The position numbers and the translations under genes are program-made. From the NCBI GenBank assembly GCA_964402785.1, contig CAYODQ010000001.1:18124-82123 (forward strand): DNA of 64,000 nt, read 5' to 3'. Numbering within the stretch: the stretch's first letter is position 1; every line of letters begins with the position of its first letter. The stretch comes from an uncultured Planctomycetia bacterium. GTDB lineage: Bacteria > Omnitrophota > Gorgyraeia > 2-02-FULL-51-18. Positions 20,165 to 63,450 of the stretch are shown in pieces. The notes below the pieces were generated by a model. The model was not told the DNA's origin, searched no databases, and saw only the letters and a program-made list of their open reading frames with translations.

Positions 20165-21361
20165 GTGTCCGACGATCGCTTTAGGCTTCTGTTTGAACAT
20201 TCCTCCGATGCGCATTTCATCATTATTGATGACGTTATTACTGATTGTAATCAAGCCACGGTTTCACTGCTGAACGCTAAAAGCAAAGAAGATGTTTTAA
20301 AGATCCATCCCGGACTGCTCTCTCCTGAGTTTCAGCCGGATGGAAGGTTATCGCGCGATAAACTGATCGAAATGGATTGGGTCGCAAGAGAAAAAGGGTT
20401 CCACCGATTCGAATGGGTCCATCGTAAGCTCACAGGCGAAGATTTTCCGGTTCAGGTAACGCTCAACACGCTGGAGATCGGCGGGCGGCCCGGCATGATC
20501 GCAGTCTGGCATGACCTGACGGAGCTCAAAGAAAAGGAATCCGAGCTCAGGCAAGCGCATGACAAGATGAGGGCGGATCTTGAAGCAGCAGCTGTGATCC
20601 AGCGGTCGCTTCTTCCGGTATCCTCGCCGCGCGTGAAGGGCCTTCGTTCGGGTTGGGCTTTCAAGCCTTCGGATGAATTGGGAGGGGATATTCTTAATAT
20701 TTTCCCTTTAGATGAAAAGCATGTCGGGATGTACGTGTTGGATGTGACCGGCCACGGAGTCGGTGCGTCGCTTTTGTCAGTGGCCGCCAGCCATTTTCTT
20801 TCGCCATTTTCAGAAGCTTCATTTATCCGCAGCAAACTAGGCAGTCAATCAGGCTTGGCGCGGCCTGCCGAAGTAGCTGAAAAATTGAACCGTCATTTTA
20901 CCGCCAATCCGGATCTACTTCACTTGTTTACGATGCTGTATGGCGTGCTCAATGTTCAAACGCTGGAGTTTTGTTATGTATGTGCAGGCCATCCTCTCCC
21001 AATCGTAGTCTCCAAAGAAGGAAAAGCTCAAGCGGCCGCCGGTTCCGGGATGCCGATAGGTGTGGATCAAAATTTTGAGTATTCGGAGCTTTGTATGAAA
21101 CTTAAACCGGGGGATCGGTTTTATTTGTATTCAGATGGCCTGACCGAAGCAAGGGGTCGCCGGCGTGAACAGTTCGGAGAAGAGCGTCTAATGGCTCATC
21201 TGTCCCAGATGCGGCGATCGTCGTTATTTGAAAGCGCCCAAAGTGTCATTCGCGAAGTTGAAAATTGGTGCTCACCATCAAAACCGGATGACGATATGAC
21301 TCTTTTAGCTTGCGAACTGGTGGAAGGATGTGATGGCAAGACTCTTGAGGAGTGTTTATGA
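20165..21361 (+). CDS. PAS-domain PP2C-type serine phosphatase (RsbU/SpoIIE family)
   Basis: N-terminal PAS-like region then PP2C core GGDILNIFPLDEKHVGMYVLDVTGHGVGASLL. Confidence 0.85.
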   Translation: MSDDRFRLLFEHSSDAHFIIIDDVITDCNQATVSLLNAKSKEDVLKIHPGLLSPEFQPDGRLSRDKLIEMDWVAREKGFHRFEWVHRKLTGEDFPVQVTLNTLEIGGRPGMIAVWHDLTELKEKESELRQAHDKMRADLEAAAVIQRSLLPVSSPRVKGLRSGWAFKPSDELGGDILNIFPLDEKHVGMYVLDVTGHGVGASLLSVAASHFLSPFSEASFIRSKLGSQSGLARPAEVAEKLNRHFTANPDLLHLFTMLYGVLNVQTLEFCYVCAGHPLPIVVSKEGKAQAAAGSGMPIGVDQNFEYSELCMKLKPGDRFYLYSDGLTEARGRRREQFGEERLMAHLSQMRRSSLFESAQSVIREVENWCSPSKPDDDMTLLACELVEGCDGKTLEECL

Positions 21362-22415: not shown

Positions 22416-23714
22416 ATGGATCTCTTCGAGTCGCGCTCTCAGGGTAGTTCTGGACATGAACCTCTTGCTGTTCGTATGCGGCCGTCTTTGTTGGCGGAAT
22501 ATACGGGGCAGGAGCATATATTGGCGCCGGGGAAATTGCTGCATCGCGCCATTATTTCGGATCGAATTTCATCGATCATTCTTTATGGACCGCCGGGTAC
22601 AGGCAAGACCACCCTCGCGACGGTTATCTCCAATGAAACCAAGTCACATTTTGAGGCGTTGAATGCGGTTTCCAGCAGCGTTGCTGAGATCCGCAAAGTC
22701 ATAGAGGGCGCCAAGCAGCGTATCGCTGTTAAAAAGCAAAAGACGATCTTGTTCATCGACGAGATCCATCGGTTCTCAAAGTCGCAGCAAGATGTTCTTA
22801 TGCCGGATGTGGAGAGGGGGAATCCGATCCTTATTGGTGCGACGACACAAAATCCATTTTTTTCGATCGTACCGGCGCTTTTGTCTCGATCGCTCGTGTT
22901 TGAGCTGAAGTCTCTCTCGGAAGCGCATATACAAAAAATCATTCTCAATGCTTTGCAAAATAAAGAGAAGGGGTTGGGAGCGTTCCCGGTCCAGTTGGAT
23001 ACAGATGCTCTGGAGCTGCTGTCGATCAAGTGTGATGGCGATGCGCGCCGGGCTTTAAATGCGTTGGAGATCGGGGTATTGACGACGCCCAGGAATGAGT
23101 CGGGGCAGATCGTTTTCACAAGAGATGTTGCGGAAGAGTCTATCCAAAAAAAAGCCGTTGTTTATGATGCGGATGGGGATGGGCATTATGATACGATATC
23201 TGCATTCATTAAGTCGATGCGCGGCTCGGATCCGGATGCGTCGCTTTATTATCTGGCCAAGATGCTGTATGCCGGCGAGGATCCAAGATTTGTCGCACGT
23301 CGTATCGTGATCTGTGCTTCCGAAGATGTGGGCAACGCTGATCCTAGGGCGCTCATGATCGCCAATGCTGCATTTCAGGCAGCGGAGTACCTGGGGATGC
23401 CGGAGGCTAGGATACCGCTGGCTCAAGCTGTGGTTTATATTGCATGCGCACCCAAATCGAATGCCAGCTATCTAGCCATCGATAAAGCTTTGAAGGATAT
23501 AGCCGAAAATAAAACACTGGAAGTGCCCAAGCATCTAAAAGATGCCAGTTATAAAGGGGCGCAGGTGTTGGGTCATGGTGAGGGATATAAATATGCCCAC
23601 GATTATGAGGGGCATGTCGTGGCGCAAGACTATCTTGAAAAGCGAATTCAATATTACTTTCCAACAGATCAAGGATATGAAAAAACTATGAAACAGAATT
23701 TGAGGAAGTCGTGA
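22416..23714 (+). CDS. rarA: Replication-associated recombination protein A (AAA+ ATPase MgsA/RarA); start trimmed to ATG22416
   Basis: LYGPPGTGKTTLA Walker A, FIDEIHRF Walker B, C-terminal MgsA helical domain. Confidence 0.92.
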   Translation: MDLFESRSQGSSGHEPLAVRMRPSLLAEYTGQEHILAPGKLLHRAIISDRISSIILYGPPGTGKTTLATVISNETKSHFEALNAVSSSVAEIRKVIEGAKQRIAVKKQKTILFIDEIHRFSKSQQDVLMPDVERGNPILIGATTQNPFFSIVPALLSRSLVFELKSLSEAHIQKIILNALQNKEKGLGAFPVQLDTDALELLSIKCDGDARRALNALEIGVLTTPRNESGQIVFTRDVAEESIQKKAVVYDADGDGHYDTISAFIKSMRGSDPDASLYYLAKMLYAGEDPRFVARRIVICASEDVGNADPRALMIANAAFQAAEYLGMPEARIPLAQAVVYIACAPKSNASYLAIDKALKDIAENKTLEVPKHLKDASYKGAQVLGHGEGYKYAHDYEGHVVAQDYLEKRIQYYFPTDQGYEKTMKQNLRKS

Positions 23715-24679
23715 GAGATTTTAGATCCCAAAGGCAAGGCGGCAACAATCATTGGCGCTCTCAGACGGCGCATGGCCGCAGACCGATGCATCAGCCTGCC
23801 GTTCGGCAAGCAGATGAGTTTGAGAAAAAATTTTATGCAGGCACCGCTGTAGATCCATCGCCGCGGATCCGGCTCGAGTCGGGCAGCTCGGAGCTGACGA
23901 TGCGCGCTATGGATCTGATCTGTCCGATAGGGATGGGGCAAAGGGGTTTGATCGTAGCACCGCCCGGTTCCGGAAAGACCACTTTTTTGAAGCATATTTG
24001 TCAGTCGGTCGCAAAAGGTTATCCGGATATCAAATTGTACTGCCTCTTGATCAATGAGAGGCCGGAGGAAGTTACGGATTTTAAACGCAGTGTGGCTGCG
24101 ACGGTTAAAGCATCATCATCCGACGAAAGTTACGAGCAGCATATTCGCGCTGCGGATGAATTATTGAGAGAGGCGTTTCGCGAGGTCTCGGAGGGAAAGA
24201 ATGTTATGATCGTGATCGATTCTCTGACGCGCCTTGCTCGCGTGCACAATGCCGAGCGCCATTCGAGTGGTCGCACGTTGTCAGGCGGTGTGGATGCGAG
24301 AGCTTTGGAGGCGCCCAGGAGGATATTTGGCGCCGCCAGAAAGATCGAGAACGGGGGATCGCTCACGATGTTGGCGACGATCCTGGTACAGACAGGTAGC
24401 CGTATGGACGATGTGATCTTTGAGGAATTTAAAGGCACGGGCAATATGGAGATCGTCTTGTCCAGAGAGATATCTGGCCGGCGTATTTTTCCGGCGATTG
24501 ACATTCCCAAGAGCGGTACCCGAAGAGAGGAGTTGTTGTTAGGCTCCGAAGAACTTCTGAAGGTGCGCAAGTTGCGCCGTACTCTGGCGGAATTGGGCGC
24601 AGTCGATGCGGCAAGGACATTGGTCGAACATCTAGAAAAACATCGGAATAATCAGGAATTATTGGACGCAATTCGATGA
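23711..24679 (+). CDS. Rho-like ATPase: paralogue of Rho comprising only the C-terminal RecA-like ATPase/translocase domain (no N-terminal RNA-binding domain), Arg-rich N-terminal tail
   Basis: [70 protein letters not shown] align along their length with Rho 10760-12019 from residue ~165; GTG start overlapping rarA stop. Confidence 0.8.
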   Translation: MRDFRSQRQGGNNHWRSQTAHGRRPMHQPAVRQADEFEKKFYAGTAVDPSPRIRLESGSSELTMRAMDLICPIGMGQRGLIVAPPGSGKTTFLKHICQSVAKGYPDIKLYCLLINERPEEVTDFKRSVAATVKASSSDESYEQHIRAADELLREAFREVSEGKNVMIVIDSLTRLARVHNAERHSSGRTLSGGVDARALEAPRRIFGAARKIENGGSLTMLATILVQTGSRMDDVIFEEFKGTGNMEIVLSREISGRRIFPAIDIPKSGTRREELLLGSEELLKVRKLRRTLAELGAVDAARTLVEHLEKHRNNQELLDAIR

Positions 24680-27686: not shown

Positions 27687-27820
27687 ATTAAGCAAGATCC
27701 AATTGCCGGAAATTCCCAAGGGCGCTTCTGGATTTTTGTGGCGTGGTATTGATAAGTAGAATTGTATGATGTATAATATTGATAAGATATAGTAATTATT
27801 GATAATTGTGGAGACGGGTT

Positions 27821-28198
27821 ATGAGGAAGAGAATTCTCGTGGTGGATGACGAGAAAAATATCACAATTTTTTTAAGAAGCTATTTAGAGGATACCGGTCA
27901 TTACACGGTCATGACTGAAAATGTTGGTTTGAATGCGATCGAAACAGCCAGGAAGTTTAAGCCGGATCTGATTTTGCTGGATATTATGATGAAGGACGTG
28001 AGTGGTGATAGCCTGGCCGACGAGATCAAGAACGACCCGGATCTTCATAATGTCCCTATAGTTTTTTTGACAGGTATCGTCACCAAGGAAGAGGTAGAGG
28101 CCAACGGTGGTATTATTGGTGGTTACACCTACATCGCAAAGCCCATATTGGCCATGCATGAACTTATCGATTGCATAGAAGCCAACCTTATCAAGTGA
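27821..28198 (+). CDS. Single-domain response regulator (REC only)
   Basis: ILVVDDEKN..LILLDIMM..FLTG receiver motifs; ATG27821 chosen over TTG27806. Confidence 0.85.
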   Translation: MRKRILVVDDEKNITIFLRSYLEDTGHYTVMTENVGLNAIETARKFKPDLILLDIMMKDVSGDSLADEIKNDPDLHNVPIVFLTGIVTKEEVEANGGIIGGYTYIAKPILAMHELIDCIEANLIK

Positions 28199-28208
28199 GC
28201 CATTTTCT

Positions 28209-30176
28209 GTGAATTCTCCCGTAAAGGTCCTGCTGTTGGAAGACATGCAATCCGATGCGGATCTTATTTTCAATGAGCTGAAGGCATCCGGAATCTCATT
28301 TGATTTTAAGCATGTTGAATCGAAGTCGGATTTTGTAAAAGCTCTTATATATTTCAATCCACAACTTGTTCTCTCAGATTATATGGTGCAAGGCTACAGC
28401 GGTTTGGATGCTTTGCATGAGGTTCAAAAAAACTGTCCACTTTGCCCATTTATTTTTATTTCTTGGGAAATACATCAAGACTCTGTAGTGGAAGCACTCA
28501 AGGCAGGTGCCACAGATCACGTTTTTAAAGAAAGGATCGGGCGGCTAACATTTTCTGTACATCGCGCCCTTCGCGAAGCCAAGGAGAGGCAAGCTCTTGA
28601 GGCGGCGCACCGTGCGCTTCAGATCAGCGAGGAGTATTTCCGTTCTCTCATCGAAAATTCAAGCGATATCATCACCGTTATTGATCAAGCCGGGAAAATT
28701 TATTATGCCAGCCCATCCGTCGAGAAGGTTTTGGGCTACGATACCGCGGAATTTATCGGCCATCATTTATATGAATTCATACACCACGAAGACCACGAAA
28801 ATGCAAAATTCATCCTAAACGAGGAAGGCCAGAAGAAAGACGTGTCTCTGGAATTCCGTTTCCAGCATCATGATGGATCTTGGCGTGGTTTGGAGGCGAT
28901 TGGAAAGCGCGTAACGGTGGAGGGTGAGTCGCGAGTGATCTTGAACGCTCGGGATGTCACGGATCGTCTTTTGGAGCAAGAGGCGTTGCGTGAAAGTATT
29001 ATCCGACATCTCAAAACACAGACTGAGCTTCAGAAAACACAGCAGAGGATCATCCAGCAAGAGCGCTTGGCGGCGATTGGACAGATGGCCAGTGGTATTG
29101 CCCATGACTTTTCTAATGCTCTAATGCCTGTTCTGGGTTTTAGCGAGATCTTAATGAATCAACCAGAAGCGCTAAAAGACCTGACGAAAGTAAAAAAATA
29201 CCTAGAGATGATCAATACTTCCGCCAGAGACGCTATGCATATCGTAGGTGGTTTGAGAGATTTTTATCGCACCAAGGAAAAGAATGAACATTTGGTAGCG
29301 ACCAATGTGAATAAAGTGGTTGAGCAAGCTGTGATGTTGACGCAACCCAAATGGAAAGAGGAGAGCCGTGCCAAAGGGATAGAGATTGAAACGAAGATGG
29401 AGCTCAAAAATGTTCCGGATATGATCGCGAATGAATCTTCTCTTCGCGAGGCTTTGACCAATCTTATTTTTAATGCCGTAGATGCAATGCCGGAGGGCGG
29501 GAAGATCATTTTTAGGAGCCGAGAGGAGGATGGATACGTTCTTCTGGATGTCTCAGATACAGGGCAGGGTATGCCGGAGGATGTAAGAGAGCGCTGCTTT
29601 GAGCCTTTTTACTCGACCAAAGGAAAAGGTGGAACAGGTTTGGGATTGGCGATGGTGTACGGTGTTGTTCGTCGGCATGACGGGGCTATCGATGTCAAAA
29701 GTATTCAGGGGGTTGGAACCACGTTCATGATTCGTCTGCCTGTCAAACAAGTCAAAGGCAAGGACGTTGGTGTACCCGCTCCGGCGACCTTAGAAATGAG
29801 CCGAAAACTTTGGGTGCTTGTGGTGGATGATGAGCCCATGGTTCGCGAAGTCATGACCGAATATCTAAAAGGGGACGGCCATTCGGTGGACACGGCCTGC
29901 AATGGTGTCGAAGCGCTCAAAATATTCAAGGAAAAAAAATTCGACCTTATGATCACCGATCGCGCGATGCCTGAGATGAGTGGTGATCAGTTGACTCAGG
30001 AGATCAAAAAAATTTCTCCGCATATTCCGGTTATTATGTTGACAGGATTTGGCGAATTGATGAAAGCTAAAGGCGAACAACCCCAGGGAGTGAATTGTCT
30101 TTTAAGTAAACCGCTTACTTTTGAAGCCTATCGAAATGCGCTTTTGCGTGTTTTCCCACATGTTAAAAATGCTTAA
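28209..30176 (+). CDS. Hybrid sensor histidine kinase (REC-PAS-HisKA-HATPase_c-REC), cytoplasmic
   Basis: N-terminal REC (VLLLEDMQSD..LSDYMV), PAS, H-box IAHDFSNAL, G-boxes, C-terminal REC (LVVDDEPMV..LMITDRAMP). Confidence 0.9.
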   Translation: MNSPVKVLLLEDMQSDADLIFNELKASGISFDFKHVESKSDFVKALIYFNPQLVLSDYMVQGYSGLDALHEVQKNCPLCPFIFISWEIHQDSVVEALKAGATDHVFKERIGRLTFSVHRALREAKERQALEAAHRALQISEEYFRSLIENSSDIITVIDQAGKIYYASPSVEKVLGYDTAEFIGHHLYEFIHHEDHENAKFILNEEGQKKDVSLEFRFQHHDGSWRGLEAIGKRVTVEGESRVILNARDVTDRLLEQEALRESIIRHLKTQTELQKTQQRIIQQERLAAIGQMASGIAHDFSNALMPVLGFSEILMNQPEALKDLTKVKKYLEMINTSARDAMHIVGGLRDFYRTKEKNEHLVATNVNKVVEQAVMLTQPKWKEESRAKGIEIETKMELKNVPDMIANESSLREALTNLIFNAVDAMPEGGKIIFRSREEDGYVLLDVSDTGQGMPEDVRERCFEPFYSTKGKGGTGLGLAMVYGVVRRHDGAIDVKSIQGVGTTFMIRLPVKQVKGKDVGVPAPATLEMSRKLWVLVVDDEPMVREVMTEYLKGDGHSVDTACNGVEALKIFKEKKFDLMITDRAMPEMSGDQLTQEIKKISPHIPVIMLTGFGELMKAKGEQPQGVNCLLSKPLTFEAYRNALLRVFPHVKNA

Positions 30177-30185
30177 ATACGTTTG

Positions 30186-30214
30186 TTGACACTCGCTTCC
30201 AGCGGGAGTATACT
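30186..30214 (+). promoter_or_regulatory. Sigma70-type promoter TTGACA-17 nt-TATACT upstream of lipoprotein gene
   Basis: Consensus -35 and near-consensus -10 with 17-nt spacer. Confidence 0.55.
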
Positions 30215-30271
30215 CCATTTCAGTTTGAAATTTCGCTCACAAATTGACCCCGAAAAAAGGAAGGAAATGCG

Positions 30272-30802
30272 ATGAAGCATTGGAAAGTTGGATCAGTTGC
30301 GTTGCTAGTCATTATTTTTGCAGCCAGTGGTTGTGCCAAGAAGTCAACAGAGCAGGCAAGTATCGCGGGAACGGGTTTTGACTCGCTTTCCTCCACAGAA
30401 GAGTTGGCACAGTTGCCATCGACTTCTACTGCCAGCCAACAGGGCGCCGTTGAGGTGCTTCCGATCGAAACATCGCCCATTACTCAGGGTGTTCCTCCGA
30501 TCGCGGGACCCACATCCTCTCAAGCCACTTTGTCAGCTGGGACCGTGACAGAAGCGGTATCCGCTGTTGCTGGTTCACTGACTCGTGATCAGCAAATTCA
30601 AACCGCACTTAAGAACGCTGGTTTGTACGCCGGAAATATTGACGGAAAGATCGGCCCTGCATCCAAGCGTGCTATCCAAGAGTTTCAACGTCAAAATAAT
30701 TTAAAAGCAGACGGAAAAGTCGGCCCCAAGACTTGGGCTGCCATGGAACACTACTTGCAGGGTGCTCCCGAAACACAGACTCAGCAAAGCGTCGATCAGT
30801 AA
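30272..30802 (+). CDS. Lipoprotein with C-terminal peptidoglycan-binding (PG_binding_1) domain
   Basis: Lipobox ASGC; LKNAGLYAGNIDGKIGPASKRAIQEFQRQNNLKADGKVGPKTWAAM. Confidence 0.75.
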   Translation: MKHWKVGSVALLVIIFAASGCAKKSTEQASIAGTGFDSLSSTEELAQLPSTSTASQQGAVEVLPIETSPITQGVPPIAGPTSSQATLSAGTVTEAVSAVAGSLTRDQQIQTALKNAGLYAGNIDGKIGPASKRAIQEFQRQNNLKADGKVGPKTWAAMEHYLQGAPETQTQQSVDQ

Positions 30803-30821
30803 CAATACTTGGTTCGAATCT

Positions 30822-30873
30822 CCGCCCTTTCTTGGCTCCGCGCGAGCTTGGAAAGGGCGGTTTTTATTTGTTT
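30822..30873 (+). terminator. Rho-independent terminator (CCGCCCTTTC...GAAAGGGCGG + TTTTTATTTGTTT)
   Basis: 10-bp GC-rich stem with internal GCTC/GAGC sub-stem, U-tract. Confidence 0.75.
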
Positions 30874-30896
30874 AAATCCTCAGTCCTCTATATAAT
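30868..30896 (+). promoter_or_regulatory. Putative sigma70 promoter TTGTTT-17 nt-TATAAT for the sodC operon
   Basis: Hexamers and spacing read from sequence; followed by TTCGTAA direct repeats and a GGAG RBS. Confidence 0.5.
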
Positions 30897-30938
30897 AAAC
30901 TTTCGTAATTTTAATGTTCGTAACGGATCGGAGTATCT

Positions 30939-31457
30939 GTGATCAGAAGAGTTTTGATCGTAACTTTTTTGTTTTTGGCGTATCTTGTTTCGCCGGCATT
31001 TGCAGAGAAGGGTGTGGCTCGTATTCGTGCAACACAGGAAGGTAAGAGTTACACGGGCAATGTTTTGTTTGAGGACACGGATAACGGTCTTAAAGTATCG
31101 GCTGAGCTGCAAGGATTTGTTCCAGGCGACCATGGATTTCATATCCACCAGTTTGGCGACTGTTCCGACACCGGCAAAGCAGCCGGAGGCCACTACAATC
31201 CAGATGGAGCACCGCACGGACTCATCACCAAAGATGGTGTTCAGCACGCCCATGCCGGCGATATGGGCAATGTGACCATCGGGCCGGATGGAACAGGTAA
31301 GGCAGTGGTGGTGATCCCAGCTCTCAGCCTGCTGTCGGGACCATACGCTGTTGCGGGCCGCAGTGTGATCGTACACGAGAATAAAGACGACTTTAGCCAA
31401 CCCCTCGGAAATGCGGGCTCCCGTGTTGGTTGCGGAGAGATCGTTATTTCATCATGA
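30939..31457 (+). CDS. sodC: Periplasmic Cu/Zn superoxide dismutase
   Basis: Signal peptide; GFHIHQFGDCS, HYNPDGAPHG, HAGDMGN metal-ligand motifs; GTG start. Confidence 0.93.
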   Translation: MIRRVLIVTFLFLAYLVSPAFAEKGVARIRATQEGKSYTGNVLFEDTDNGLKVSAELQGFVPGDHGFHIHQFGDCSDTGKAAGGHYNPDGAPHGLITKDGVQHAHAGDMGNVTIGPDGTGKAVVVIPALSLLSGPYAVAGRSVIVHENKDDFSQPLGNAGSRVGCGEIVISS

Positions 31458-32968
31458 ATTTGATATTTCCGTTTTTGTTATCTCAAACGGAATCCACTTC
31501 GGTTGTTTCCCCGACAGCCGTGATCGTTATTCTGTCCTCCATTTTCGTTGCTATTGTGACCGCGTTTGCGCTAAATCGCGCAGCTCATTCTAAAAAAGAA
31601 ATTCGTATTGAAAGCGGATCTATTCCCAAAAAAGAATTTGTGGCTGAAAACCCGGCCACAACAACCGCCCTCAAAGAAAAATTAGCCAGGCTTCCTGTTC
31701 GAATACCCGACCGTGACAATACGATCCAGGAAATATCCAAGATAATCGAAGAGGAGACCGAAACGCGCCTGAAAGAAGTGAAACAAGAATATTCCGTCAA
31801 ATACCAGGTCATGGTCCAGGAAAAAAATAAAGAAGTGGAAGGTGTCCGGCGTGAATTCAATAAGACGGTCGAAAAATACGACGAGGTGAAGCGTCTTTAT
31901 AAACGCACCGAGATCGAAAAAAAGAATACAGAAGCAGTTGTGAAGAGTATTGCGGATGGGCTAGTGGTGGTCAATGACAAAGGTGAGGTTTTGTTGATGA
32001 ATCCAGCCGCCGAGAAGATACTTGGCACGCAAAGCCAAAAAAAAGTTGGAAAAAATGTGATGGAGGGGCTGGGTTCTGAGCATCTTGTATCCATGAGCCG
32101 CCAGTTGGACGAGAGCGGGGAGAAGGTGGTGGAATACACCTCCAAAGATGAGAATGTCAAAAAAGTGATACGCTCTTCAAGTGCCGTGATCCAGAACGAG
32201 GACGGACAAACGATAGGTATGGTCAATGTGTTGACGGATGTGACCAAACAAAAAGAGTTGGATGAGATCAAAACACGTTTTGTTTCCAATGTCACCCATG
32301 AGCTTCGTACACCGATCGTGGCCATGCAAAAGGCGATCGAGATCCTGATGGACAAAAAAGGCCCTCCGCTTAGTGATATGCAGCAAAACTTTTTGGGGAT
32401 TGTGCAGCGCAATATGGCAATGCTTTCACGTTTGGTGGAAGATCTGCTGGATATGGCTAAGATCGAGTCCGGTAAGATGCGCCTTAAGTTTTTGCCGGTC
32501 AGGATCGATAAAGTGGTGAGCGATGCCTGCGAAGCGCTGGTGACTTGGGCCAACTCCAAAGAAATCCAGCTCGAGAAGGACATTGATAAAAGTTTACCCG
32601 AATTGACCGTGGATTCTGTTAAAATAACTCAGGTATTGAATAACTTGATAGGAAATGCTATCAAGTTTACGCCCAAGACGGGCAAAATATTCGTCAGTTG
32701 TGGCTGGCATGATGCTCAAAATGTTAAAATAGCGGTTCGCGATACGGGTGTTGGTATCGCAAAAGAGAATATCGCTAAGTTGTTCGGGCGCTTTGAGCAG
32801 TTTGGTGATTTACAAGGGATCAGTGGTACGGGGCTCGGTTTATGCATCTCCAAGGAGATCGTGGAGAGGCATGGCGGCAAGATTTGGGTGGAAAGTGAAG
32901 AAAAAAAAGGGGCGACGTTTACGTTTACGCTCCCCATTAAGCAGCAAGCAGTGATAGGAGGCGTTTGA
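31454..32968 (+). CDS. Membrane sensor histidine kinase (TM-coiled coil-PAS-HisKA-HATPase_c)
   Basis: H-box VTHELRTPI; N/G boxes [21 protein letters not shown]; ATG31454 overlaps sodC stop (ATGA). Confidence 0.9.
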
Positions 32969-33363
32969 TGGCGAAGGAAATTTGTATTTTATTTGTCGAT
33001 GATCAGCCGGATTTTTTGGAGACGATGACGTATTGGATGCGTAATCGTGGCTATCAAGTGATCACTGCTGGTGGCGGCCCCGAGGGTATAGATCTTCTCA
33101 AGAAAAATGAACAAGTAGATATCGTTTTCGCCGATTTTAAAATGGAAGGCATGAACGGTATCGAAATGATCACCAAGATCCGAGAGTTCAATAAAACGAT
33201 CCCGATCGTGATGGTCACGGCGCATGCAGACGATGCCATGATCCATAAGACCAAAGACCTCAATATCTCAGGTTTCTTCTCAAAAATGGGTGGTTTTGAG
33301 GATCTGGAACAGGTGATCGAAGTGGTGCTTCGCAGCATCAAGCGATCGAAGGGCAACGCCTGA
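32965..33363 (+). CDS. Single-domain response regulator (REC only)
   Basis: [25 protein letters not shown]; ATGA overlap with kinase. Confidence 0.85.
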
Positions 33364-43889: not shown

Positions 43890-45704
43890 ATGAAAAACAT
43901 ACGTAATGTCGCTATTATCGCTCACGTTGACCATGGCAAGACGACCCTTGTGGACGCCTTGCTCAAGCAGTCCAACGTCCATCGCAATATCAATGAGATG
44001 GGCGAGTGCATCATGGACTCCATGGATCTTGAAAAGGAACGTGGTATCACGATCCGCGCCAAGAACGCCAGCGTGGAGTACAAAGGCCACAAGATAAACA
44101 TTATTGATACCCCGGGCCACGCAGACTTTGGTGGCGAGGTGGAGCGCACGCTTCGTATGGCGGATGCTGCTCTTCTGGTGGTGGATGCCAAAGACGGTCC
44201 TATGCCTCAAACCCGCTTTGTGCTTCGCAAGGCTCTCGAGCAAGGACTCAAGATCATCGTTGTGGTCAATAAGGTCGATCGCAATGACTCTCAGATCGAT
44301 GATGTCATGAATCGCACATTTGACCTTTTTTGTGAATTAAACGCCACCAGCGATCAGCTGGATTTTCCGACGGTGTTTGCGTCTGCGCTCAAAGGCACGG
44401 CGACCTTGGATATGAAACACCCCAATGACAATATTTTCCCGCTTTTAGACCTTATCATTGAAAAAGTGCCCGAGCCGCAGGGTGACGAAAAGGCACCGCT
44501 TCAGATACTGGTGCTTTCGCTGTCTCAAGACTCTTATAAAGGAAAGATGGGTATCGGAAAGCTTTCCAATGGCACGATCGAAAAGAATCAAAATGTGGCA
44601 TTGATCCGCCGAGACGGCACACAAGTGAATTCAAAAGTGATCGGTCTTTTGACCTATCGCGGTCTTGAAAGGGTCGAAGTTGAGAAGGCGGTCGCAGGCG
44701 ATATTGTGTCCGTGGCCGGTTTTCAGGAGATCGGTATTGGTGAGACCATCACGGATGCCTCCAATCCCATGCCGCTTCCGACGCTTAAAATTGACGAGCC
44801 CACCGTTCAGATGACATTTGGTGTCAATACCAGTCCTTTTGCCGGGCGTGAGGGTAAATTCGTGACGTCACGCATGATCCGCGACCGTCTATTTAAAGAG
44901 TTGGAGACCAATGTTTCTCTTCGCGTGGACGAGACCGACAGTCCCGATACTTTTTTGGTATCAGGCCGCGGCGAGTTGCACCTTTCTATTTTAATTGAAA
45001 CAATGCGCCGCGAGGGTTTTGAGTTGCAGGTGTCGCAGCCTGTTGTTATATTTCACGAAGAAAACGGCGTAAAAATGGAACCATTCGAGCTTTTGATCAT
45101 AGACGTGCCGGCCGAATATCAAGGCACGGTGCTCGAAGAGATAGGCCGCCGGCGCGGTGTCATGAAGAATATGTCCCAAACGCCGACAGGTGAATTGCAT
45201 TTGGAATATCAAATCGCCACGCGGGGCGTGATCGGTCTCAAAGGTTTGTTCATGACCAAAACGCGCGGCACGGCGATTGTCCATCATGTATTTGATGAAT
45301 ATAAACCGGCTATCGATGCGTCCTGGAATACTTTTCCTCATGGCTCGCTCGTGGCTTGTGAAACGGGCACGGCGACATCGTATTCGCTTTGCAGCTGCCA
45401 AGAGCGCGGTGATCTATTTATCAAGCCGGGCATCGAAGTGTACGACGGCATGATCATTGGCGAGAATTCTCGTGGCGAAGATCTTGAGATTAGTCCTTGC
45501 AAAACCAAAAAAATGTCCAATATGCGTTCGGTGAGCGCGGATGATGCGTTGGTTTTGACGCCTCCACGCGAGCTGACGCTTGAGCTCTCCATTGAATTCA
45601 TCGGCCCTGATGAGCTCGTCGAAGTGACTCCCAAAAATATCCGGTTGAGAAAAAGGCTTCTCGACCCACTCCAAAGAAAACGCGTCAAACGCCAAACCGC
45701 CTAA
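43890..45704 (+). CDS. typA: Translational GTPase BipA/TypA; start trimmed to ATG43890
   Basis: NVAIIAHVDHGKTTLVDALL G1, DTPGHADFGGEVER G3; EF-G-like domains. Confidence 0.95.
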   Translation: MKNIRNVAIIAHVDHGKTTLVDALLKQSNVHRNINEMGECIMDSMDLEKERGITIRAKNASVEYKGHKINIIDTPGHADFGGEVERTLRMADAALLVVDAKDGPMPQTRFVLRKALEQGLKIIVVVNKVDRNDSQIDDVMNRTFDLFCELNATSDQLDFPTVFASALKGTATLDMKHPNDNIFPLLDLIIEKVPEPQGDEKAPLQILVLSLSQDSYKGKMGIGKLSNGTIEKNQNVALIRRDGTQVNSKVIGLLTYRGLERVEVEKAVAGDIVSVAGFQEIGIGETITDASNPMPLPTLKIDEPTVQMTFGVNTSPFAGREGKFVTSRMIRDRLFKELETNVSLRVDETDSPDTFLVSGRGELHLSILIETMRREGFELQVSQPVVIFHEENGVKMEPFELLIIDVPAEYQGTVLEEIGRRRGVMKNMSQTPTGELHLEYQIATRGVIGLKGLFMTKTRGTAIVHHVFDEYKPAIDASWNTFPHGSLVACETGTATSYSLCSCQERGDLFIKPGIEVYDGMIIGENSRGEDLEISPCKTKKMSNMRSVSADDALVLTPPRELTLELSIEFIGPDELVEVTPKNIRLRKRLLDPLQRKRVKRQTA

Positions 45705-45707
45705 GCT

Positions 45708-46439
45708 GTGGAGAGGCTGCAGGTTTTCCTAGCCCGGCACGGGATCGCCAGTCGTCGCGGAGTCGTCCAAAGCATCGAGTCCGGTGATGTCAAAGTAAAC
45801 GGCCAGGTTGTCCGCGAAAAAGGTTTCCGTGTAGATCCTCTGAAGGACAAGGTCGAATATCAAGGCAAGCTTCTCTCTGCCAAAAAACCCGATTTTGTGT
45901 ATTACCTTTTTTACAAACCCCTGGGCGTCACCACAACTTTATCCGATCCTCATGCCAAAAATATGGTCTCCGATTATTTTAAGGATGTGCCGGAGCGTGT
46001 CTATCCTGTGGGCCGTCTCGATCGAGAGACGACAGGTGTGCTTCTTATGACCAACGATGGCGAGCTTTCGTTTCGGCTGGCGCATCCCAGCTACGGTATC
46101 GATAAAACATATTTTGCGCGTGTCATGGGGATCATCACGGATGATAAAAGAGATTTTTTGCAAGAAGGTGTTCAATTGGAAGAGGGGATCACAGCACCTT
46201 GCAAAGTGGAGATCCAGCAGATCTTGAAGAATGAGACCGAGATCGTCATGACACTTCACGAGGGGAAAAAACGTCAGATCAGACGGATGTTGGATTTGAT
46301 CGGCAATCCTGTTATAAAGTTAGAGAGGATACAGTACGCCAATTTGACTCTCGGGAGCCTCATGCCAGGCCAGAGGCGGGAGTTGACGGCAGATGAAGTG
46401 CGGACGCTAAAACGAATGGTTCAATTGGAGAAGACTTGA
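45708..46439 (+). CDS. rluB: Pseudouridine synthase (RsuA/RluB family) with S4 domain
   Basis: S4-like N-terminus RLQVFLARHGIASRR; catalytic VYPVGRLDRETTGVLLMTNDG. Confidence 0.88.
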   Translation: MERLQVFLARHGIASRRGVVQSIESGDVKVNGQVVREKGFRVDPLKDKVEYQGKLLSAKKPDFVYYLFYKPLGVTTTLSDPHAKNMVSDYFKDVPERVYPVGRLDRETTGVLLMTNDGELSFRLAHPSYGIDKTYFARVMGIITDDKRDFLQEGVQLEEGITAPCKVEIQQILKNETEIVMTLHEGKKRQIRRMLDLIGNPVIKLERIQYANLTLGSLMPGQRRELTADEVRTLKRMVQLEKT

Positions 46440-46681
46440 TGGACCCCGGTGTAGTTATCTACACAACCAATTATTGCCCCTATTGCCACGCCGCCAAGGA
46501 ATTCCTCAAGTCCAAAAAAGTTCCCTTTAAAGAAGTCGATGTCTCCACGGATGAAGTCATGCGTCAAAAATTAGTTGAGTTATCCGGGCAGGAGACGGTG
46601 CCTCAGATCTTCAGTGGTGGCCGCTCCATAGGAGGGTATCAGGATCTGGTGCGATATTATCAAGAGGGGCATCGGCTATGA
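46436..46681 (+). CDS. grxC: Glutaredoxin
   Basis: CPYC active site, TVPQIF, GG motif. Confidence 0.9.
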   Translation: MMDPGVVIYTTNYCPYCHAAKEFLKSKKVPFKEVDVSTDEVMRQKLVELSGQETVPQIFSGGRSIGGYQDLVRYYQEGHRL

Positions 46682-47040
46682 CGGGAGACTCTTGGGCCGA
46701 GAAAAGACGCCACAAGCGTTTCCCTAAAACTCTGATCGTTAAATGGCAACCCGAAGGCTCGGGTGCTTCCAATGCTTGGAAAACAGCTTTTTTGAAAGAT
46801 ATTAGCCGTGGTGGATTGGCTATGCAATGTGGCGAAGCAGTGACCATGGGTGATAAACTAAGATTTCAGGTGACGGTGGATCTTGAGACGCCTCCATTTA
46901 CTTGTGTGGGCCAGGTGGTGCGTGTTCGCCGGATCGCGTCGCCTGCCGGATACGATGTTGGTATATTTTTTACGGCCATCGATCCGCGGGATGCAGATTG
47001 TATTGATATGCTTGCTGAGGGCCACGACAGAAATATTTAA
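46678..47040 (+). CDS. PilZ-domain protein (single domain) 1
   Basis: RRHKR (RxxxR) and DISRGG (DxSxxG) c-di-GMP motifs. Confidence 0.8.
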   Translation: MTGDSWAEKRRHKRFPKTLIVKWQPEGSGASNAWKTAFLKDISRGGLAMQCGEAVTMGDKLRFQVTVDLETPPFTCVGQVVRVRRIASPAGYDVGIFFTAIDPRDADCIDMLAEGHDRNI

Positions 47041-47051
47041 GCAGGAGGCTT

Positions 47052-47438
47052 ATGGGTTATTTTGGTCAGGAACGAAGAAAAAATAAAAGGCTGCCTGAGC
47101 TTTTTTTTGTCAAATGGCAGCAGGATTCAAAAGAGTCTCCGAAAAATTGGACAACAGCTTATCTTAAGAATATTAGTCGCTCAGGCCTAGCTATGCAGTG
47201 TAGCCAAAAGCTTGTGGTCGGCGACAAGCTGAATCTTTTGGTCACTGTTCATGTCGAAACGGCTCCGTGCATGTGTGCGGGTCAAGTTATTTGGATACAA
47301 AAAACACCTGACAAGCTTGGCTATGAGGTTGGGGTGGCTTTTACCAGTATTGATAACAAAGATGCGGATTGGATCGATGTATTGGCGGAGGAATTTGAGC
47401 GCAGAGCTGAGCGAGAGAGAGGGGAGACTGCTACTTGA
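47052..47438 (+). CDS. PilZ-domain protein 2
   Basis: RRKNKR and NISRSG motifs; paralogue of 46678-47040. Confidence 0.8.
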   Translation: MGYFGQERRKNKRLPELFFVKWQQDSKESPKNWTTAYLKNISRSGLAMQCSQKLVVGDKLNLLVTVHVETAPCMCAGQVIWIQKTPDKLGYEVGVAFTSIDNKDADWIDVLAEEFERRAERERGETAT

Positions 47439-47794
47439 GCTATACGGGACCGGAGCGCCGCAAGTCGGATCGCATTCGTAAACAATTTACTATTCGCCTA
47501 AGAAGGATCTCAAACAGCTTTGCGGGTGATTGGGATATCGTCTTGTTGAAAGATATATCTAGGAGTAGTTTATCATTCCAGCATGATCGTCCTTTTGGTG
47601 AAGGGGATTTGCTAGATTTAAAGATCAGCATTGGTTCGGATGCCACGCCTATTAGTTGCCGCGGCGAGGTCGTTCGTGTCGAAGAAGCGGGCATTTCAAG
47701 AGCACATGAAATTGCCGTAGTTTTTGTCGATATTCAGCCGAATGATATGGAGCGCATCCAGAAGACCATTGACGAGCTCAGGAAGACGCTGTGA
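47435..47794 (+). CDS. PilZ-domain protein 3 (second motif degenerate: DISRSS)
   Basis: RRKSDR present; Gly of DxSxxG replaced by Ser. Confidence 0.75.
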   Translation: MSYTGPERRKSDRIRKQFTIRLRRISNSFAGDWDIVLLKDISRSSLSFQHDRPFGEGDLLDLKISIGSDATPISCRGEVVRVEEAGISRAHEIAVVFVDIQPNDMERIQKTIDELRKTL

Positions 47795-48585
47795 GTCAGG
47801 CCAACAAGGCTCGTTTTGCTCTCATTACCGGGGCTTCTAGCGGTATCGGGTATGAGCTTGCACATGTTTTTGCAAAAAACGGATGGAACCTAGTGCTTGT
47901 CGCCAGGCGCTTGGATAGGCTTTTAGCGTTGTCGCAGCAACTTTCCAAATCATTTGGTGTGTCCGTTTTTGTGATCGAAAAAGATCTGACGAAGCCCCAA
48001 GCTTCCGAAGAGTTATTCCGAGAAACCAGCTCCAAGAATTTAGTGATCGATGCTTTGGTGAATAATGCCGGAGTGGCTACCTACGGGATGTTTAGCCGAA
48101 CGGAACTGAAAGCCGAAACGGATCTGCTTGAGATCAATATAGGAGCGCTTACAAAATTGAGTAAGTTTTATTTACGTCCAATGCTGGAGCGAAAAAAGGG
48201 ATGGATCTTGAATGTCGCATCCACCGCCGCTTTTCAACCGGGCCCGCTCATGGCTGTGTATTACGCATCAAAAGCGTATGTGCTTTCCTTTTCCGAGGCG
48301 CTAGCCAATGAGCTTGAGGGAACCGGTGTTTCTGTCACTGCTTTGTGTCCAGGCGCTACCAAAACAGAATTTAAAGATGCGGCCAAGATGGGGGACTCCA
48401 AATTATTCCAAAAACAGGTGATGTCCGCCGAACGGGTTGCCCAGGAAGGGTATCGAGGTATGATGCGGCGAAAAACCATTGTTATTCCGGGTGTCAAAAA
48501 CACGATCATGGCTTCGTCGGTGAGATGGGCTCCCAGATGGCTCGTTCCCAGGGTCGTGAGAAGATTGCAAGAAACCCGATCTTAA
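47791..48585 (+). CDS. Short-chain dehydrogenase/reductase (SDR)
   Basis: TGASSGIG cofactor motif, YxxxK (YASKAY). Confidence 0.9.
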   Translation: MSQANKARFALITGASSGIGYELAHVFAKNGWNLVLVARRLDRLLALSQQLSKSFGVSVFVIEKDLTKPQASEELFRETSSKNLVIDALVNNAGVATYGMFSRTELKAETDLLEINIGALTKLSKFYLRPMLERKKGWILNVASTAAFQPGPLMAVYYASKAYVLSFSEALANELEGTGVSVTALCPGATKTEFKDAAKMGDSKLFQKQVMSAERVAQEGYRGMMRRKTIVIPGVKNTIMASSVRWAPRWLVPRVVRRLQETRS

Positions 48586-49232
48586 AAGGTCGAGCGAAGC
48601 AGCGCCCAAGGGTTATAGGTTGCTTTGATGCTGTCTTTGACCTTTCCTGTTTTATCGATCACCAGACCACCCTCCAAGTGCAGCATGTCTGATTCACAAT
48701 CCAGGATATTCAGCCGGGTGAATTCGCGATTTTGAACGACATTCAGCCGGATATCTTTTATTGCTATCGGCTTATGCATAAGATATCCCCATTTCTTGAG
48801 CGCGGGCTGATCTTTATAGTATTCCTTGGTGAAAAAAACATTTTTTAAGTTGATCTCCGTCTCGAAGACGGCTTGTTTTTTGAGCTCCATTTTCCTTAAT
48901 TTAAAACTACCTTTTGAGCCATAAATAAGTTCACGGCCTGCTTTGGATCGGATGCGGATCGATGCAAAATGAATCTCTGACCAATTTTTAAAGACGACGC
49001 GAGAGACGCGTACGGGGCAGTCATAGCGTTCGGACAAAATATCGGAAAAAGCCACATCCACCCAATTTCCTCGTATTTGCTGCAGCGCCACATCGGAGAG
49101 ATTTTTGGACCAGCATGGAAGGGAGGCAGCGATCCATGTGATAAAAAAAAGAAGAATCAGTTTTTCGGGTAGCGTATACAGCGCCCCCAATATCTGAAAT
49201 TCATTTCTACTAACAACGGCCTTTTTGTCCAT
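48582..49232 (-). CDS. Hypothetical protein with N-terminal membrane anchor
   Basis: ORF with hydrophobic LILLFFITWIAASL; start chosen at MDKKAVV; convergent and 4-nt overlapping with SDR gene. Confidence 0.5.
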   Translation of the reverse strand: MDKKAVVSRNEFQILGALYTLPEKLILLFFITWIAASLPCWSKNLSDVALQQIRGNWVDVAFSDILSERYDCPVRVSRVVFKNWSEIHFASIRIRSKAGRELIYGSKGSFKLRKMELKKQAVFETEINLKNVFFTKEYYKDQPALKKWGYLMHKPIAIKDIRLNVVQNREFTRLNILDCESDMLHLEGGLVIDKTGKVKDSIKATYNPWALLRSTF

Positions 49233-49344
49233 ACTAAAAATATACATTACACTTAATAAGTATTCAATTTTAACTAAAATATATATAATATTAATTAATA
49301 ATTAGTACTTGAGGGGAAAAACGGCTGTGGTAAACTAACTAGTC

Positions 49345-49869
49345 ATGAAGAAGCAGCTATTGTGGGTTGTCCTGATCATCTTTTTTTGCCCAAATTTTTC
49401 TGGCGCATCCGAAACAGCCACGTTCACACACAAGCATTTTCTGTACACCATGGATTACCCAGCTGCTTGGCACGTGAGAGAATTGAACAAAATAGCGTCA
49501 TTTTACTCGCCTTTGGACTCCCCGCAGGATAAGTTCGCTGAAAATGTGAGCGTGGTGGTCGAAGATCTGAGCCATGTGGAAGAGGATGTGCAGCTTATCG
49601 ATTATCATCGCAAAGGGATGGCTTCTGCAAAAAATAGCCTTCGAGATTTTAGAGTGCTGGAAGAAGCCAAGACAGATTTTAAGGGGCGCGAGGCTATTGT
49701 GGTCTTATACACCATGACTGACCGGGGCGTTGCCTTCAAGATCCGTTCGCTCACTTTTTTTGTGGATAAAGAAGTGTATGTGTTGACATATAGCGCAACG
49801 CAAGCGGACTACGATAAATATTTCAAAGCAGCTGAAAATTGTATTCGATCCATACGGGTCAGCCCTTGA
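49345..49869 (+). CDS. Hypothetical secreted protein
   Basis: Signal peptide MKKQLLWVVLIIFFCPNFSGA; AT-rich divergent promoter region upstream. Confidence 0.55.
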   Translation: MKKQLLWVVLIIFFCPNFSGASETATFTHKHFLYTMDYPAAWHVRELNKIASFYSPLDSPQDKFAENVSVVVEDLSHVEEDVQLIDYHRKGMASAKNSLRDFRVLEEAKTDFKGREAIVVLYTMTDRGVAFKIRSLTFFVDKEVYVLTYSATQADYDKYFKAAENCIRSIRVSP

Positions 49870-63081: not shown

Positions 63082-63450
63082 ATGACAGAAAAAAAGCTTT
63101 TAGTGATCGATGATGAGCCCAATTTTGCCGAGATGATATCGGAGTATTTCAAGTCAAAGGGTTATGATGCGCGCATGGCACTCAATCTGGAAGATGCGAT
63201 CAATGTATTTCGCACTCTGAAGCCCAAGGTTGTGCTGCTGGATTTCAATATGCCCATGGTGACGGGTGACAAATTTTTACCCATTCTTCAGACCATGAAC
63301 CCGCTTGTGAAGATCATCGTCGTGACGGGCATGATCCAAGAAGAGGTAGAGGAGAAATTCAAAGGCCTGGGGTATTATGGTTTTTTTGAAAAAGGAACCA
63401 CGCCCTTGGAAAAAATGCTCCAGAAGGTCAACGAGGCTTTGGAGGCCTAG
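63082..63450 (+). CDS. Single-domain response regulator (REC only)
   Basis: LLVIDDEPN..VLLDFNMPMV..VVTG. Confidence 0.85.
   Translation: MTEKKLLVIDDEPNFAEMISEYFKSKGYDARMALNLEDAINVFRTLKPKVVLLDFNMPMVTGDKFLPILQTMNPLVKIIVVTGMIQEEVEEKFKGLGYYGFFEKGTTPLEKMLQKVNEALEA

Follow-up and report, generated by a model that had tools for sequence, protein, structure and literature searches.

Among c-di-GMP receptors, PilZ proteins are the most common and, to our knowledge, neither partner nor affinity is known for most stand-alone members of the family. The locus analysed here, part of a 64-kb stretch of DNA (the window), encodes three such proteins in a row, the last of which has a changed ligand motif. Is this third protein still a receptor, and how might the three copies divide the work?

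Organisation of the locus and its motifs

The three genes lie within a tightly packed, co-directional cluster with the order typA-rluB-grx-pilZ1-pilZ2-pilZ3-SDR:

43890..45704, + strand: typA/bipA, translational GTPase, 604 aa; heads the cluster
45708..46439, + strand: rluB-type pseudouridine synthase, 3 nt past the typA stop; Pfam S4 and PseudoU_synth_2
46439..46681, + strand: grx, glutaredoxin, 80 aa, with CPYC; Pfam Glutaredoxin, E 1.2e-24
46678..47040, + strand: PilZ1 (P1), 120 aa, ATG start; Pfam PilZ, 45.1 bits, E 1.3e-11
47052..47438, + strand: PilZ2 (P2), 128 aa, ATG start; Pfam PilZ, 49.8 bits, E 4.7e-13
47435..47794, + strand: PilZ3 (P3), 119 aa, TTG start; Pfam PilZ, 47.3 bits, E 2.8e-12
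47791..48585, + strand: SDR, short-chain dehydrogenase/reductase, 264 aa; Pfam adh_short, E 1.7e-47; closes the cluster

The original prediction had placed three adjacent single-domain PilZ paralogues at 46678-47794 on the forward strand, and this is what we find: PF07238 is the sole Pfam match in each protein, covers profile positions 1-98 of 102 and scores above the gathering cut-off of 22.5 bits in all three ORFs. Each is an ORF in its own right, in a different frame from the other two and with a stop and a ribosome-binding site of its own. Regarding the predicted spacing, the 4-nt overlap between P2 and P3 (TTGA) is correct, but the gap between P1 and P2 is 11 nt rather than 12; this spacer holds an AGGAGG Shine-Dalgarno sequence. 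Overlaps of 4 nt also join the grx stop to the P1 start (ATGA) and P3 to the GTG start of the SDR gene (GTGA). The TTG start of P3 is supported by the alignment, since in its orthologues the corresponding residue is an ATG start. Within the cluster, no internal promoter or terminator was convincing, and the gene spacing suggests that the trio and its neighbours are co-transcribed. Across the 64-kb window, there were no rRNA, tRNA or Rfam matches.

Two sequence motifs define the ligand site in this family, RxxxR and [D/N]hSxxG, and they were located as follows, all on the forward strand:

46705-46719: P1 RxxxR, R10-R-H-K-R14 (KRRHKR)
46798-46815: P1 second motif, canonical, D41-I-S-R-G-G46 (DISRGG)
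47076-47090: P2 RxxxR, R9-K-N-K-R13 (RRKNKR)
47169-47186: P2 second motif, canonical, N40-I-S-R-S-G45 (NISRSG)
47456-47473: P3 RRxxxR, with R9-K-S-D-R13 (RRKSDR)
47552-47569: P3 second motif, D40-I-S-R-S-S45 (DISRSS), with the glycine replaced by Ser45 (codon agt, 47567-47569)

Thus, all three proteins have RxxxR, both arginines of which are invariant across all orthologues, and P1 and P2 combine it with D/NxSxxG, as had been predicted; the loss of the motif glycine in P3 was also read correctly. P1 and P2 are 47% identical, whereas P3 is 24-29% identical to either. P2 has in addition an acidic/basic C-terminal tail.

Fold models cover P1 and P3 (P2 is the closer relative of P1, at the identity given above). 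AlphaFold predicts six strands and a C-terminal helix for both P1 (pLDDT 79.0) and P3 (pLDDT 77.8), with a disordered N-terminal loop that in P3 spans residues 1-14 (pLDDT <50). As predicted folds, the two models are canonical PilZ barrels. In Foldseek, both match c-di-GMP-bound PilZ structures with a probability of 1.0 (Alg44 4rt0/4rt1, MotI 5vx6, MrkH, PlzD 2rde and YcgR); for P1, the PilZ domains of MotI, Alg44 and PlzD are hit at that probability, and for P3, those of Alg44, MotI and MrkH. PA4608 (1ywu, 5y4r_D) and PA0012 (8u0i) are also among the fold matches, while the non-binding or tPilZ-type structures 3dsg, 7lkm and 3ph1 match weakly. These similarities come from fold comparison only: neither the single P3 sequence nor a 22-sequence profile found a solved PilZ structure by sequence, and partners are not transferable by homology because no sequence-level similarity to solved or characterised PilZ proteins is detectable.

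Conservation of the trio and of the variant serine

The original prediction had named a lack of conservation as a point against itself. That objection falls away: six further metagenomic contigs (L002, L003, L004, L006, L007 and L009) have the whole trio in unchanged order, and a seventh, L008, whose 5' end is cut, retains only P3. Orthologues share 50-97% amino-acid identity across the trio (56-93% for P1). Directly upstream of P1, grx is present on L002, L003, L007 and L009 and probably on L004 (a weak 37-aa match), whereas on L006 that place is taken by an unassigned 42-aa fragment. Further upstream, typA orthologues carry Pfam GTP_EFTU and BipA_C, and a tblastn comparison spanning 604 aa puts L002, L003 and L007 at 92-93% identity. 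Downstream, L002, L003, L006 and L009 have the SDR gene, L007 retains 75 aa of it as a remnant and L008 lacks it; the trio is kept even where the SDR gene is gone. Wherever dS is unsaturated, dN/dS is 0.05-0.2 for P1, P2 and P3 (0.06-0.14 for P2 orthologues), and all three are, as judged by these ratios, under purifying selection. Three significant domain matches in a row, their recurrence on other contigs and dN/dS well below 1 place the trio far beyond chance.

The trio is conserved in a narrow group of uncultivated bacteria. A scan of species-representative genomes with the P3-clade alignment returned no orthologue; its sole match, a 198-aa PilZ protein of a Syntrophorhabdus MAG (L005), is 31% identical, adjoins motA/motB and a REC-HD-GYP gene, and was rejected as an orthologue. 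A scan of metagenome contigs gave no match.

Within this group, the serine of P3 is constant. It occupies the glycine position in 10 of 10 P3-clade sequences, and the orthologues follow the pattern DIS[RK][SGA]S. Outside the clade, approximately 170 of the 174 nearest PilZ domains have glycine, and serine is limited to the P3 clade and two strays. Glycine is also present in every one of the nearest outgroup representatives (38-41% identity to P3), which places a single change to serine on the P3 stem. Among P3 orthologues at 50-97% identity, the invariant residues are E7, R8, R9, R13, D40, I41, S42 and S45. On these alignments, Ser45 marks the clade as a fixed residue rather than a sign of decay, since every P3 orthologue has it while nearly all of the nearest other PilZ domains have glycine. 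The earlier description of the P3 motif as degenerate is therefore misleading: an invariant serine, maintained down to 50% identity under purifying selection together with RRxxxR, Asp and Ser, is what one would expect if the ligand site is functional and carries a fixed variant.

Does the third protein bind c-di-GMP?

The stand-alone canonical PilZ receptors of c-di-GMP include MapZ/PA4608, PA0012 and HapZ/PA2799 of P. aeruginosa and DgrA of C. crescentus. Like them, the members of the trio are proteins of approximately 120 aa with a single PF07238 domain, a flexible RRxxxR loop, a [D/N]hSxxG turn, a six-stranded barrel and a C-terminal helix; unlike them, the trio genes are conserved together, and P3 has DxSxxS instead of DxSxxG. 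We consider it probable that the three are subfunctionalised stand-alone receptors of canonical fold, produced by tandem duplication and co-expressed, and that P3 still binds ligand. The only NCBIfam match is TIGR02266, a Myxococcus paralogous PilZ-type family that likewise consists of lineage-expanded small PilZ domains, but scores of 36.5, 39.4 and 24.3 bits fall below its cut-off of 68.7 and place the trio outside it.

The most serious alternative, suggested in the original prediction and in our view possible but clearly less likely, is that the serine abolishes c-di-GMP binding and leaves P3 a ligand-blind adaptor acting through protein-protein contacts only, like XC1028/Xac1133 and P. aeruginosa PilZ. 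The glycine is nearly invariant among the nearest PilZ domains and, in the portion of PMC6741139 that cites Christen 2007, DgrA binding is stated to require the motif Asp and Gly; taken together, Ser45 could abolish binding. P3 also evolves faster than its neighbours, with 60% identity between the window and L002 compared to 69% for P2 and 81% for P1. However, the known non-binders have lost far more than one residue. Those of the XC1028/Xac1133 and PA2960 type, and tPilZ (XCC6012/FlgX), share with P3 a PilZ fold and a deviant consensus motif, but are missing RxxxR together with the greater part of the second motif (10.1101/814665; 10.1101/2020.02.11.943704) or have a two-helix insertion. P3 keeps ERRxxxR, Asp40 and Ser42 without exception, and neither its length nor those of its neighbours (119-128 aa) nor the models, which have no inserted helices, correspond to the tetramer-forming tPilZ type with its insertion between the first barrel strands. 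If no ligand were bound, it would be difficult to see why an arginine motif should stay invariant in a loop with predicted disorder, and position 5 of the second motif stays small (S/G/A), consistent with a preserved tight turn. PA2989 provides a precedent, as its second motif is altered to xxSEGG and it still binds with micromolar affinity (10.1101/2020.02.11.943704). Our literature search found no mention of DxSxxS-type variants and, for mutants of the motif glycine, returned unrelated papers only. On the sequence evidence, the invariant ERRxxxR, Asp and Ser argue for retained nucleotide binding by P3 over a ligand-blind adaptor, perhaps with altered affinity.

A different arrangement, which we think rather unlikely, would have P1, P2 and P3 assemble into a hetero-oligomer, the unfused equivalent of PilZ-PilZ or YcgR-like xPilZ-PilZ proteins, in which variant and canonical sites cooperate. 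Those proteins (Bll4394, SMc00999, YcgR, PlzD, MotI) are also products of tandem pilZ duplication (10.1101/814665). The trio genes always occur together in the same order with junctions suited to translational coupling, two PilZ stretches are present in approximately 15 of the 150 nearest representatives, proteins of 190-253 aa, and MotI, PlzD and YcgR contribute PilZ domains that rank among the best fold matches. On the other hand, none of these two-PilZ relatives clearly fuses a P1/P2-like with a P3-like domain, and numerous PilZ proteins of the stand-alone type work as monomers. The trio also differs in having its domains in separate ORFs, with stops between them and different frames, rather than in one polypeptide, and in the extent of the motif change, which is one residue in the last copy here but complete loss in the N-terminal copy of YcgR-like proteins.

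The other signalling genes of the window bear on where the trio might take its input and pass on its output. No GGDEF, EAL or HD-GYP gene is present in the 64-kb window by six-frame motif scan or by Pfam search of the signalling and unassigned ORFs, as had been predicted (the remaining ORFs were identified by reading their translations), and for the receptor reading the lack of a visible diguanylate cyclase or phosphodiesterase in the window is a point against; the further suggestion that the array is a hub for c-di-GMP made elsewhere finds no support in our analysis. Docking to the REC-only regulators was another earlier proposal. The window encodes a hybrid histidine kinase, a second kinase and three REC-only genes, which lie 13-19 kb from the trio:

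27806-28198: REC-only gene
32965-33363: REC-only gene
63082-63450: REC-only gene

By analogy with HapZ, a single-domain PilZ protein that binds the REC domain of SagS (10.1101/2020.02.11.943704), the trio might dock onto one of these regulators or onto the hybrid kinase. We consider this improbable. The REC genes belong to other gene clusters, the conserved neighbourhood of the trio (typA, rluB, grx, SDR, a 221-aa protein and a PsbP-like protein) contains none, and no REC gene occurs near the trio in 14 kb of the related contig L003; the docking proposal thus gains no support.

It is highly implausible that the trio consists of recent, redundant duplicates, or includes a decaying one, without separate roles. 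In favour of this, the paralogues stand in tandem, the P2 orthologue of L004 has NIAREG (Ser to Ala) and the N-terminus of the P1 orthologue P0014 resembles that of P2, a hint of gene conversion, but the three form distinct orthogroups at the paralogue identities given above, each kept across synonymous-site saturation with dN/dS ≤0.2.

A candidate mechanism and its significance

Under the favoured reading of three subfunctionalised receptors, tandem gene duplication, by which PilZ proteins are known to evolve (10.1101/814665), would have produced the trio, with P3 diverging first and P1 and P2 separating later. One packed cluster would express all three, and translation would be coupled where the genes overlap. 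In each protein, the flexible (R/K)RxxxR loop at the N-terminus would capture c-di-GMP together with the D/N-h-S-x-x-G/S turn linking strands 2 and 3, and the protein would then show a ligand-dependent surface to its own putative protein partner. Binding by P1 and P2, its retention by P3 and the distinctness of the partners are all inferred. P3 most likely keeps nucleotide binding with an altered affinity or threshold, in which case the three proteins would respond at different set points to c-di-GMP from enzymes encoded elsewhere in the genome.

We also considered whether the trio is linked by redox chemistry to the upstream grx via an invariant Cys75/76. As a trio-specific link this was rejected, because among approximately 165 nearest unrelated PilZ domains the cysteine is present in 130 and Trp33 in 144.

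A bolder version would take the DxSxxS site of P3 to define a PilZ subtype whose ligand behaviour has changed, and P1-P2-P3 to be a three-tier or heteromeric sensor whose output is tied to its presumed co-transcribed neighbours, the ribosome-associated GTPase BipA/TypA, RluB and glutaredoxin. Changed behaviour of this kind could be, for example, a much higher threshold, binding of monomeric rather than dimeric c-di-GMP, or recognition of another cyclic dinucleotide. We regard this version as a long shot; if true, c-di-GMP would be connected in this lineage with translation or with the biogenesis of ribosomes.

In more modest terms, the trio belongs to a known signalling family with a minor motif variant in P3, and the locus is otherwise ordinary second-messenger wiring in an uncultivated lineage. 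What sets it apart is that it amounts to a small natural experiment, with three paralogues that are probably co-expressed, one of them with a clade-fixed change from glycine to serine at a nearly invariant ligand-contact position. As such, it bears on the contribution of the motif glycine, and on tandem PilZ arrays as graded-threshold sensors.

Organisation and fold of the pilZ trio

The window encodes three consecutive stand-alone PilZ proteins, PilZ1 to PilZ3, and, beyond the end of their cluster, two genes that recur in related contigs:
46678-47040, + strand, ORF for PilZ1 (120 aa, PilZ)
47052-47438, + strand, ORF for PilZ2 (128 aa, PilZ)
47435-47794, + strand, ORF for PilZ3 (119 aa, TTG start, PilZ)
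48582-49247, - strand, gene for a 221-aa protein, converging on the pilZ cluster and beside it in all relatives
49345-49869, + strand, next after the 221-aa gene, gene for a PsbP-like/DcrB-like putative lipoprotein

Direct reading of the DNA shows that the glutaredoxin gene (grx) and pilZ1 overlap at stop and start (ATGA), that an 11-nt spacer containing AGGAGG separates pilZ1 from pilZ2, and that 4-nt overlaps join pilZ2 to pilZ3 (TTGA) and pilZ3 to a short-chain dehydrogenase/reductase gene (SDR; GTGA). Upstream, rluB begins 3 nt after typA, and its stop is overlapped by grx. Since consensus scans also gave no convincing promoter or terminator within the cluster, the trio is embedded in a seven-gene operon-like unit, typA-rluB-grx-pilZ1-pilZ2-pilZ3-SDR, whose spacing suggests co-transcription. 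The 221-aa protein has no match in Pfam or NCBIfam, and the putative lipoprotein weakly matches the Leptospira LIC_13215 family.

PilZ is the sole Pfam domain in PilZ1, PilZ2 and PilZ3, at 45.1, 49.8 and 47.3 bits, respectively (E-values 1e-11 to 5e-13; curated cut-off 22.5 bits). AlphaFold2 models of PilZ1 (mean pLDDT 79.0, pTM 0.70) and PilZ3 (77.8, 0.66) share one topology, in which an unstructured 14-residue N-terminal loop carrying RxxxR leads into six beta-strands and the chain ends in a long helix, and their fold matches include Alg44, MotI, MrkH, PlzD/VCA0042, YcgR, BcsA, PA0012 and PA4608. By profile and fold, all three are thus members of the PilZ domain family; none is of the tetrameric, two-domain or motif-less kind. 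Sequence searches detected no solved PilZ, not even when a 22-sequence profile was used, so no characterised PilZ is a close relative and homology supplies no partners. The NCBIfam matches were all sub-threshold, to TIGR02266, a family of paralogous PilZ-type domains from Myxococcus.

By analogy with established PilZ biology, each protein would hold c-di-GMP between its (R/K)RxxxR loop and the strand 2-3 turn, and binding would order the N-terminal loop, creating or removing a partner-binding surface. PilZ1 and PilZ2 are 47% identical, and PilZ3 shares 24-29% with either. The conserved surface segments also differ between orthogroups (VKWQ, GLAMQC and DADxIDxLAEE in PilZ1 and PilZ2; IRMRK, GDWD, SLSF and IEEARK in PilZ3), which argues for different partners or thresholds. 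Alternatively, the three may well assemble into a hetero-oligomer: the trio junctions suggest translational coupling, and among the 150 nearest representatives about 15 are fusion proteins with two PilZ domains.

The Gly-to-Ser change in PilZ3

The arginine-loop and second ([D/N]hSxxG) motifs read KR-R-H-K-R and DISRGG in PilZ1, RR-K-N-K-R and NISRSG in PilZ2, and RR-K-S-D-R and DISRSS in PilZ3. The original prediction was accurate here, in that PilZ3 lacks only the glycine that ends the second motif. On sequence, PilZ1 and PilZ2 would qualify as canonical c-di-GMP receptors in every respect and PilZ3 in all but this glycine. All 10 PilZ3-clade sequences carry DIS[RK][SGA]S, with position 6 always Ser (Ser45 in PilZ3) and position 5 always small. 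Of the 187 domain matches retrieved and aligned to the PilZ3 profile, 170 have Gly at position 6 and 12 have Ser, 10 of the latter from this clade. Because the nearest outgroup representatives (38-41% identity to PilZ3) all have Gly, the change arose once, on the stem of the PilZ3 orthogroup, and was then kept.

We consider it somewhat probable that PilZ3 still binds c-di-GMP, probably at altered affinity. E7, R8, R9, R13, D40, I41 and S42 are invariant among its orthologues, and the first four lie within residues 1-14, which are nevertheless predicted to be disordered; a strictly conserved, disordered arginine loop is the pattern that a ligand-clamping segment would show. A ligand-blind PilZ3 seems rather unlikely. 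In its favour, a review states that the Asp, Ser and Gly of the second motif contact base and ribose (PMC7288161), and DgrA, according to a secondary citation (PMC6741139), needs the motif Asp and Gly. However, ligand-blind PilZ proteins are described as lacking both motifs (10.1101/814665; 10.1101/2020.02.11.943704), whereas PilZ3 differs only at the final Gly, and PA2989, with a second motif altered in another way (xxSEGG), still binds at ~3 uM (10.1101/2020.02.11.943704). A fuller scenario, in which PilZ3 is an altered-specificity sensor acting with PilZ1 and PilZ2 and tied to the ribosome functions of TypA and RluB, would be highly speculative.

Other variation was seen within the family. 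On the more divergent contig L004, the PilZ2 orthologue (556-924) has NIAREG, a second natural motif variant in which the motif Ser is Ala. The PilZ1 orthologue on contig L006 (P0014, 148-507) has a PilZ2-like N-terminal segment (GYSGKERRRHKRFPELFFVKWQ), suggesting gene conversion between adjacent paralogues. Trp33 and Cys75 (PilZ3 numbering; 47531-47533 and 47657-47659) are invariant across all three paralogue families, but among the closest unrelated PilZ domains, about 165 in all, 144 also have the Trp and 130 the Cys, so the two residues mark a wider subfamily of stand-alone PilZ proteins rather than the trio.

Signalling genes in the window

A six-frame scan of the window revealed no GGDEF, EAL or HD-GYP signature, nor did Pfam scans of its signalling and unassigned ORFs, bearing out the prediction that such genes are absent; the ligand would therefore have to come from elsewhere in the genome. 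A ligand made elsewhere is normal for PilZ genes and gives no support to the proposal that the array is a hub. The window is signalling-dense (20165-21361, 27806-33363 and 63082-63450), encoding a PAS-SpoIIE phosphatase, a REC-PAS-HisKA-HATPase-REC hybrid kinase, a second PAS histidine kinase and three REC-only proteins:
27806-28198, REC-only gene 1
32965-33363, REC-only gene 2
63082-63450, REC-only gene 3

These REC-only genes, suggested as docking partners of the trio, are real, and the PilZ protein HapZ, which binds the REC domain of SagS (10.1101/2020.02.11.943704), offers a precedent. However, they lie 13-19 kb from the trio in other clusters, the trio's conserved neighbourhood in relatives contains no REC gene, and nothing connects the two, making docking very improbable.

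Elsewhere in the window, two Rho-type ORFs (10760-12019 and 23711-24679) comprise a full-length rho (419 aa) and a second ORF (322 aa) whose translation, read by eye, resembles the ATPase portion of Rho lacking its usual N-terminal domain. The + strand carries about 65 of the 73 candidate ORFs, GC skew is positive almost throughout, and the 64 kb contain no tRNA or Rfam-recognised RNA.

Distribution, synteny and selection

A word-indexed search of 5.8 billion proteins returned only 9 relatives of PilZ3 and 12 of PilZ1 and PilZ2, on contigs that trace to six further sequencing samples or assemblies. When 1.84 billion cluster representatives were searched exhaustively with HMMER, the PilZ3 profile gave 530 matches at E<=1e-3 and only two at <=1e-30; the orthogroup is thus essentially a single 50%-identity cluster. 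GuaA, Rho, L19 and MurA from the 173-kb NCBI contig that holds the window are singletons at 90% identity, indicating a rarely sampled source organism. The only match in species-representative genomes was a 198-aa PilZ protein of a Syntrophorhabdus MAG, encoded between a REC-HD-GYP gene and motA/motB (L005, 62-3595), a classic flagellar-brake context unlike that of the trio.

Trio order and tight junctions are the same on the related contigs L002, L003, L004, L006, L007 and L009 wherever enough contig is present; on L008, whose 5' end is missing, only pilZ3 is visible. Upstream, typA-rluB-grx is kept on L002, L003 and L007, and grx alone is visible on L009 and probably L004; downstream, the 221-aa and PsbP-like genes are conserved. 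SDR (47791-48585 in the window) is a 75-aa remnant in L007 (4493-4717) and absent in L008 (411-419), yet L007 keeps the trio and L008 keeps pilZ3, so SDR is not an obligatory partner.

The window's TypA shares 92-93% identity with its counterparts on L002, L003 and L007, against 75-83% for PilZ1, 67-70% for PilZ2 and 58-60% for PilZ3; by these sequences the lineage is narrow and PilZ3 its fastest-evolving copy. Nei-Gojobori dN/dS on codon alignments was 0.05-0.2 for all three genes in every pair with unsaturated synonymous sites. The pilZ3 values include 0.09 (window versus L009), 0.05 (L002 versus L003), 0.05 (L003 versus L007) and 0.13 (L002 versus L006). The trio is under purifying selection, and pilZ3 is being maintained rather than decaying as a duplicate.

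Tandem duplication is already described as a main evolutionary route of the pilZ family (10.1101/814665), and the literature searched makes no mention of a DxSxxS variant. What is new here is small: a conserved three-gene pilZ array in an uncultivated lineage, together with a clade-fixed DxSxxS variant.
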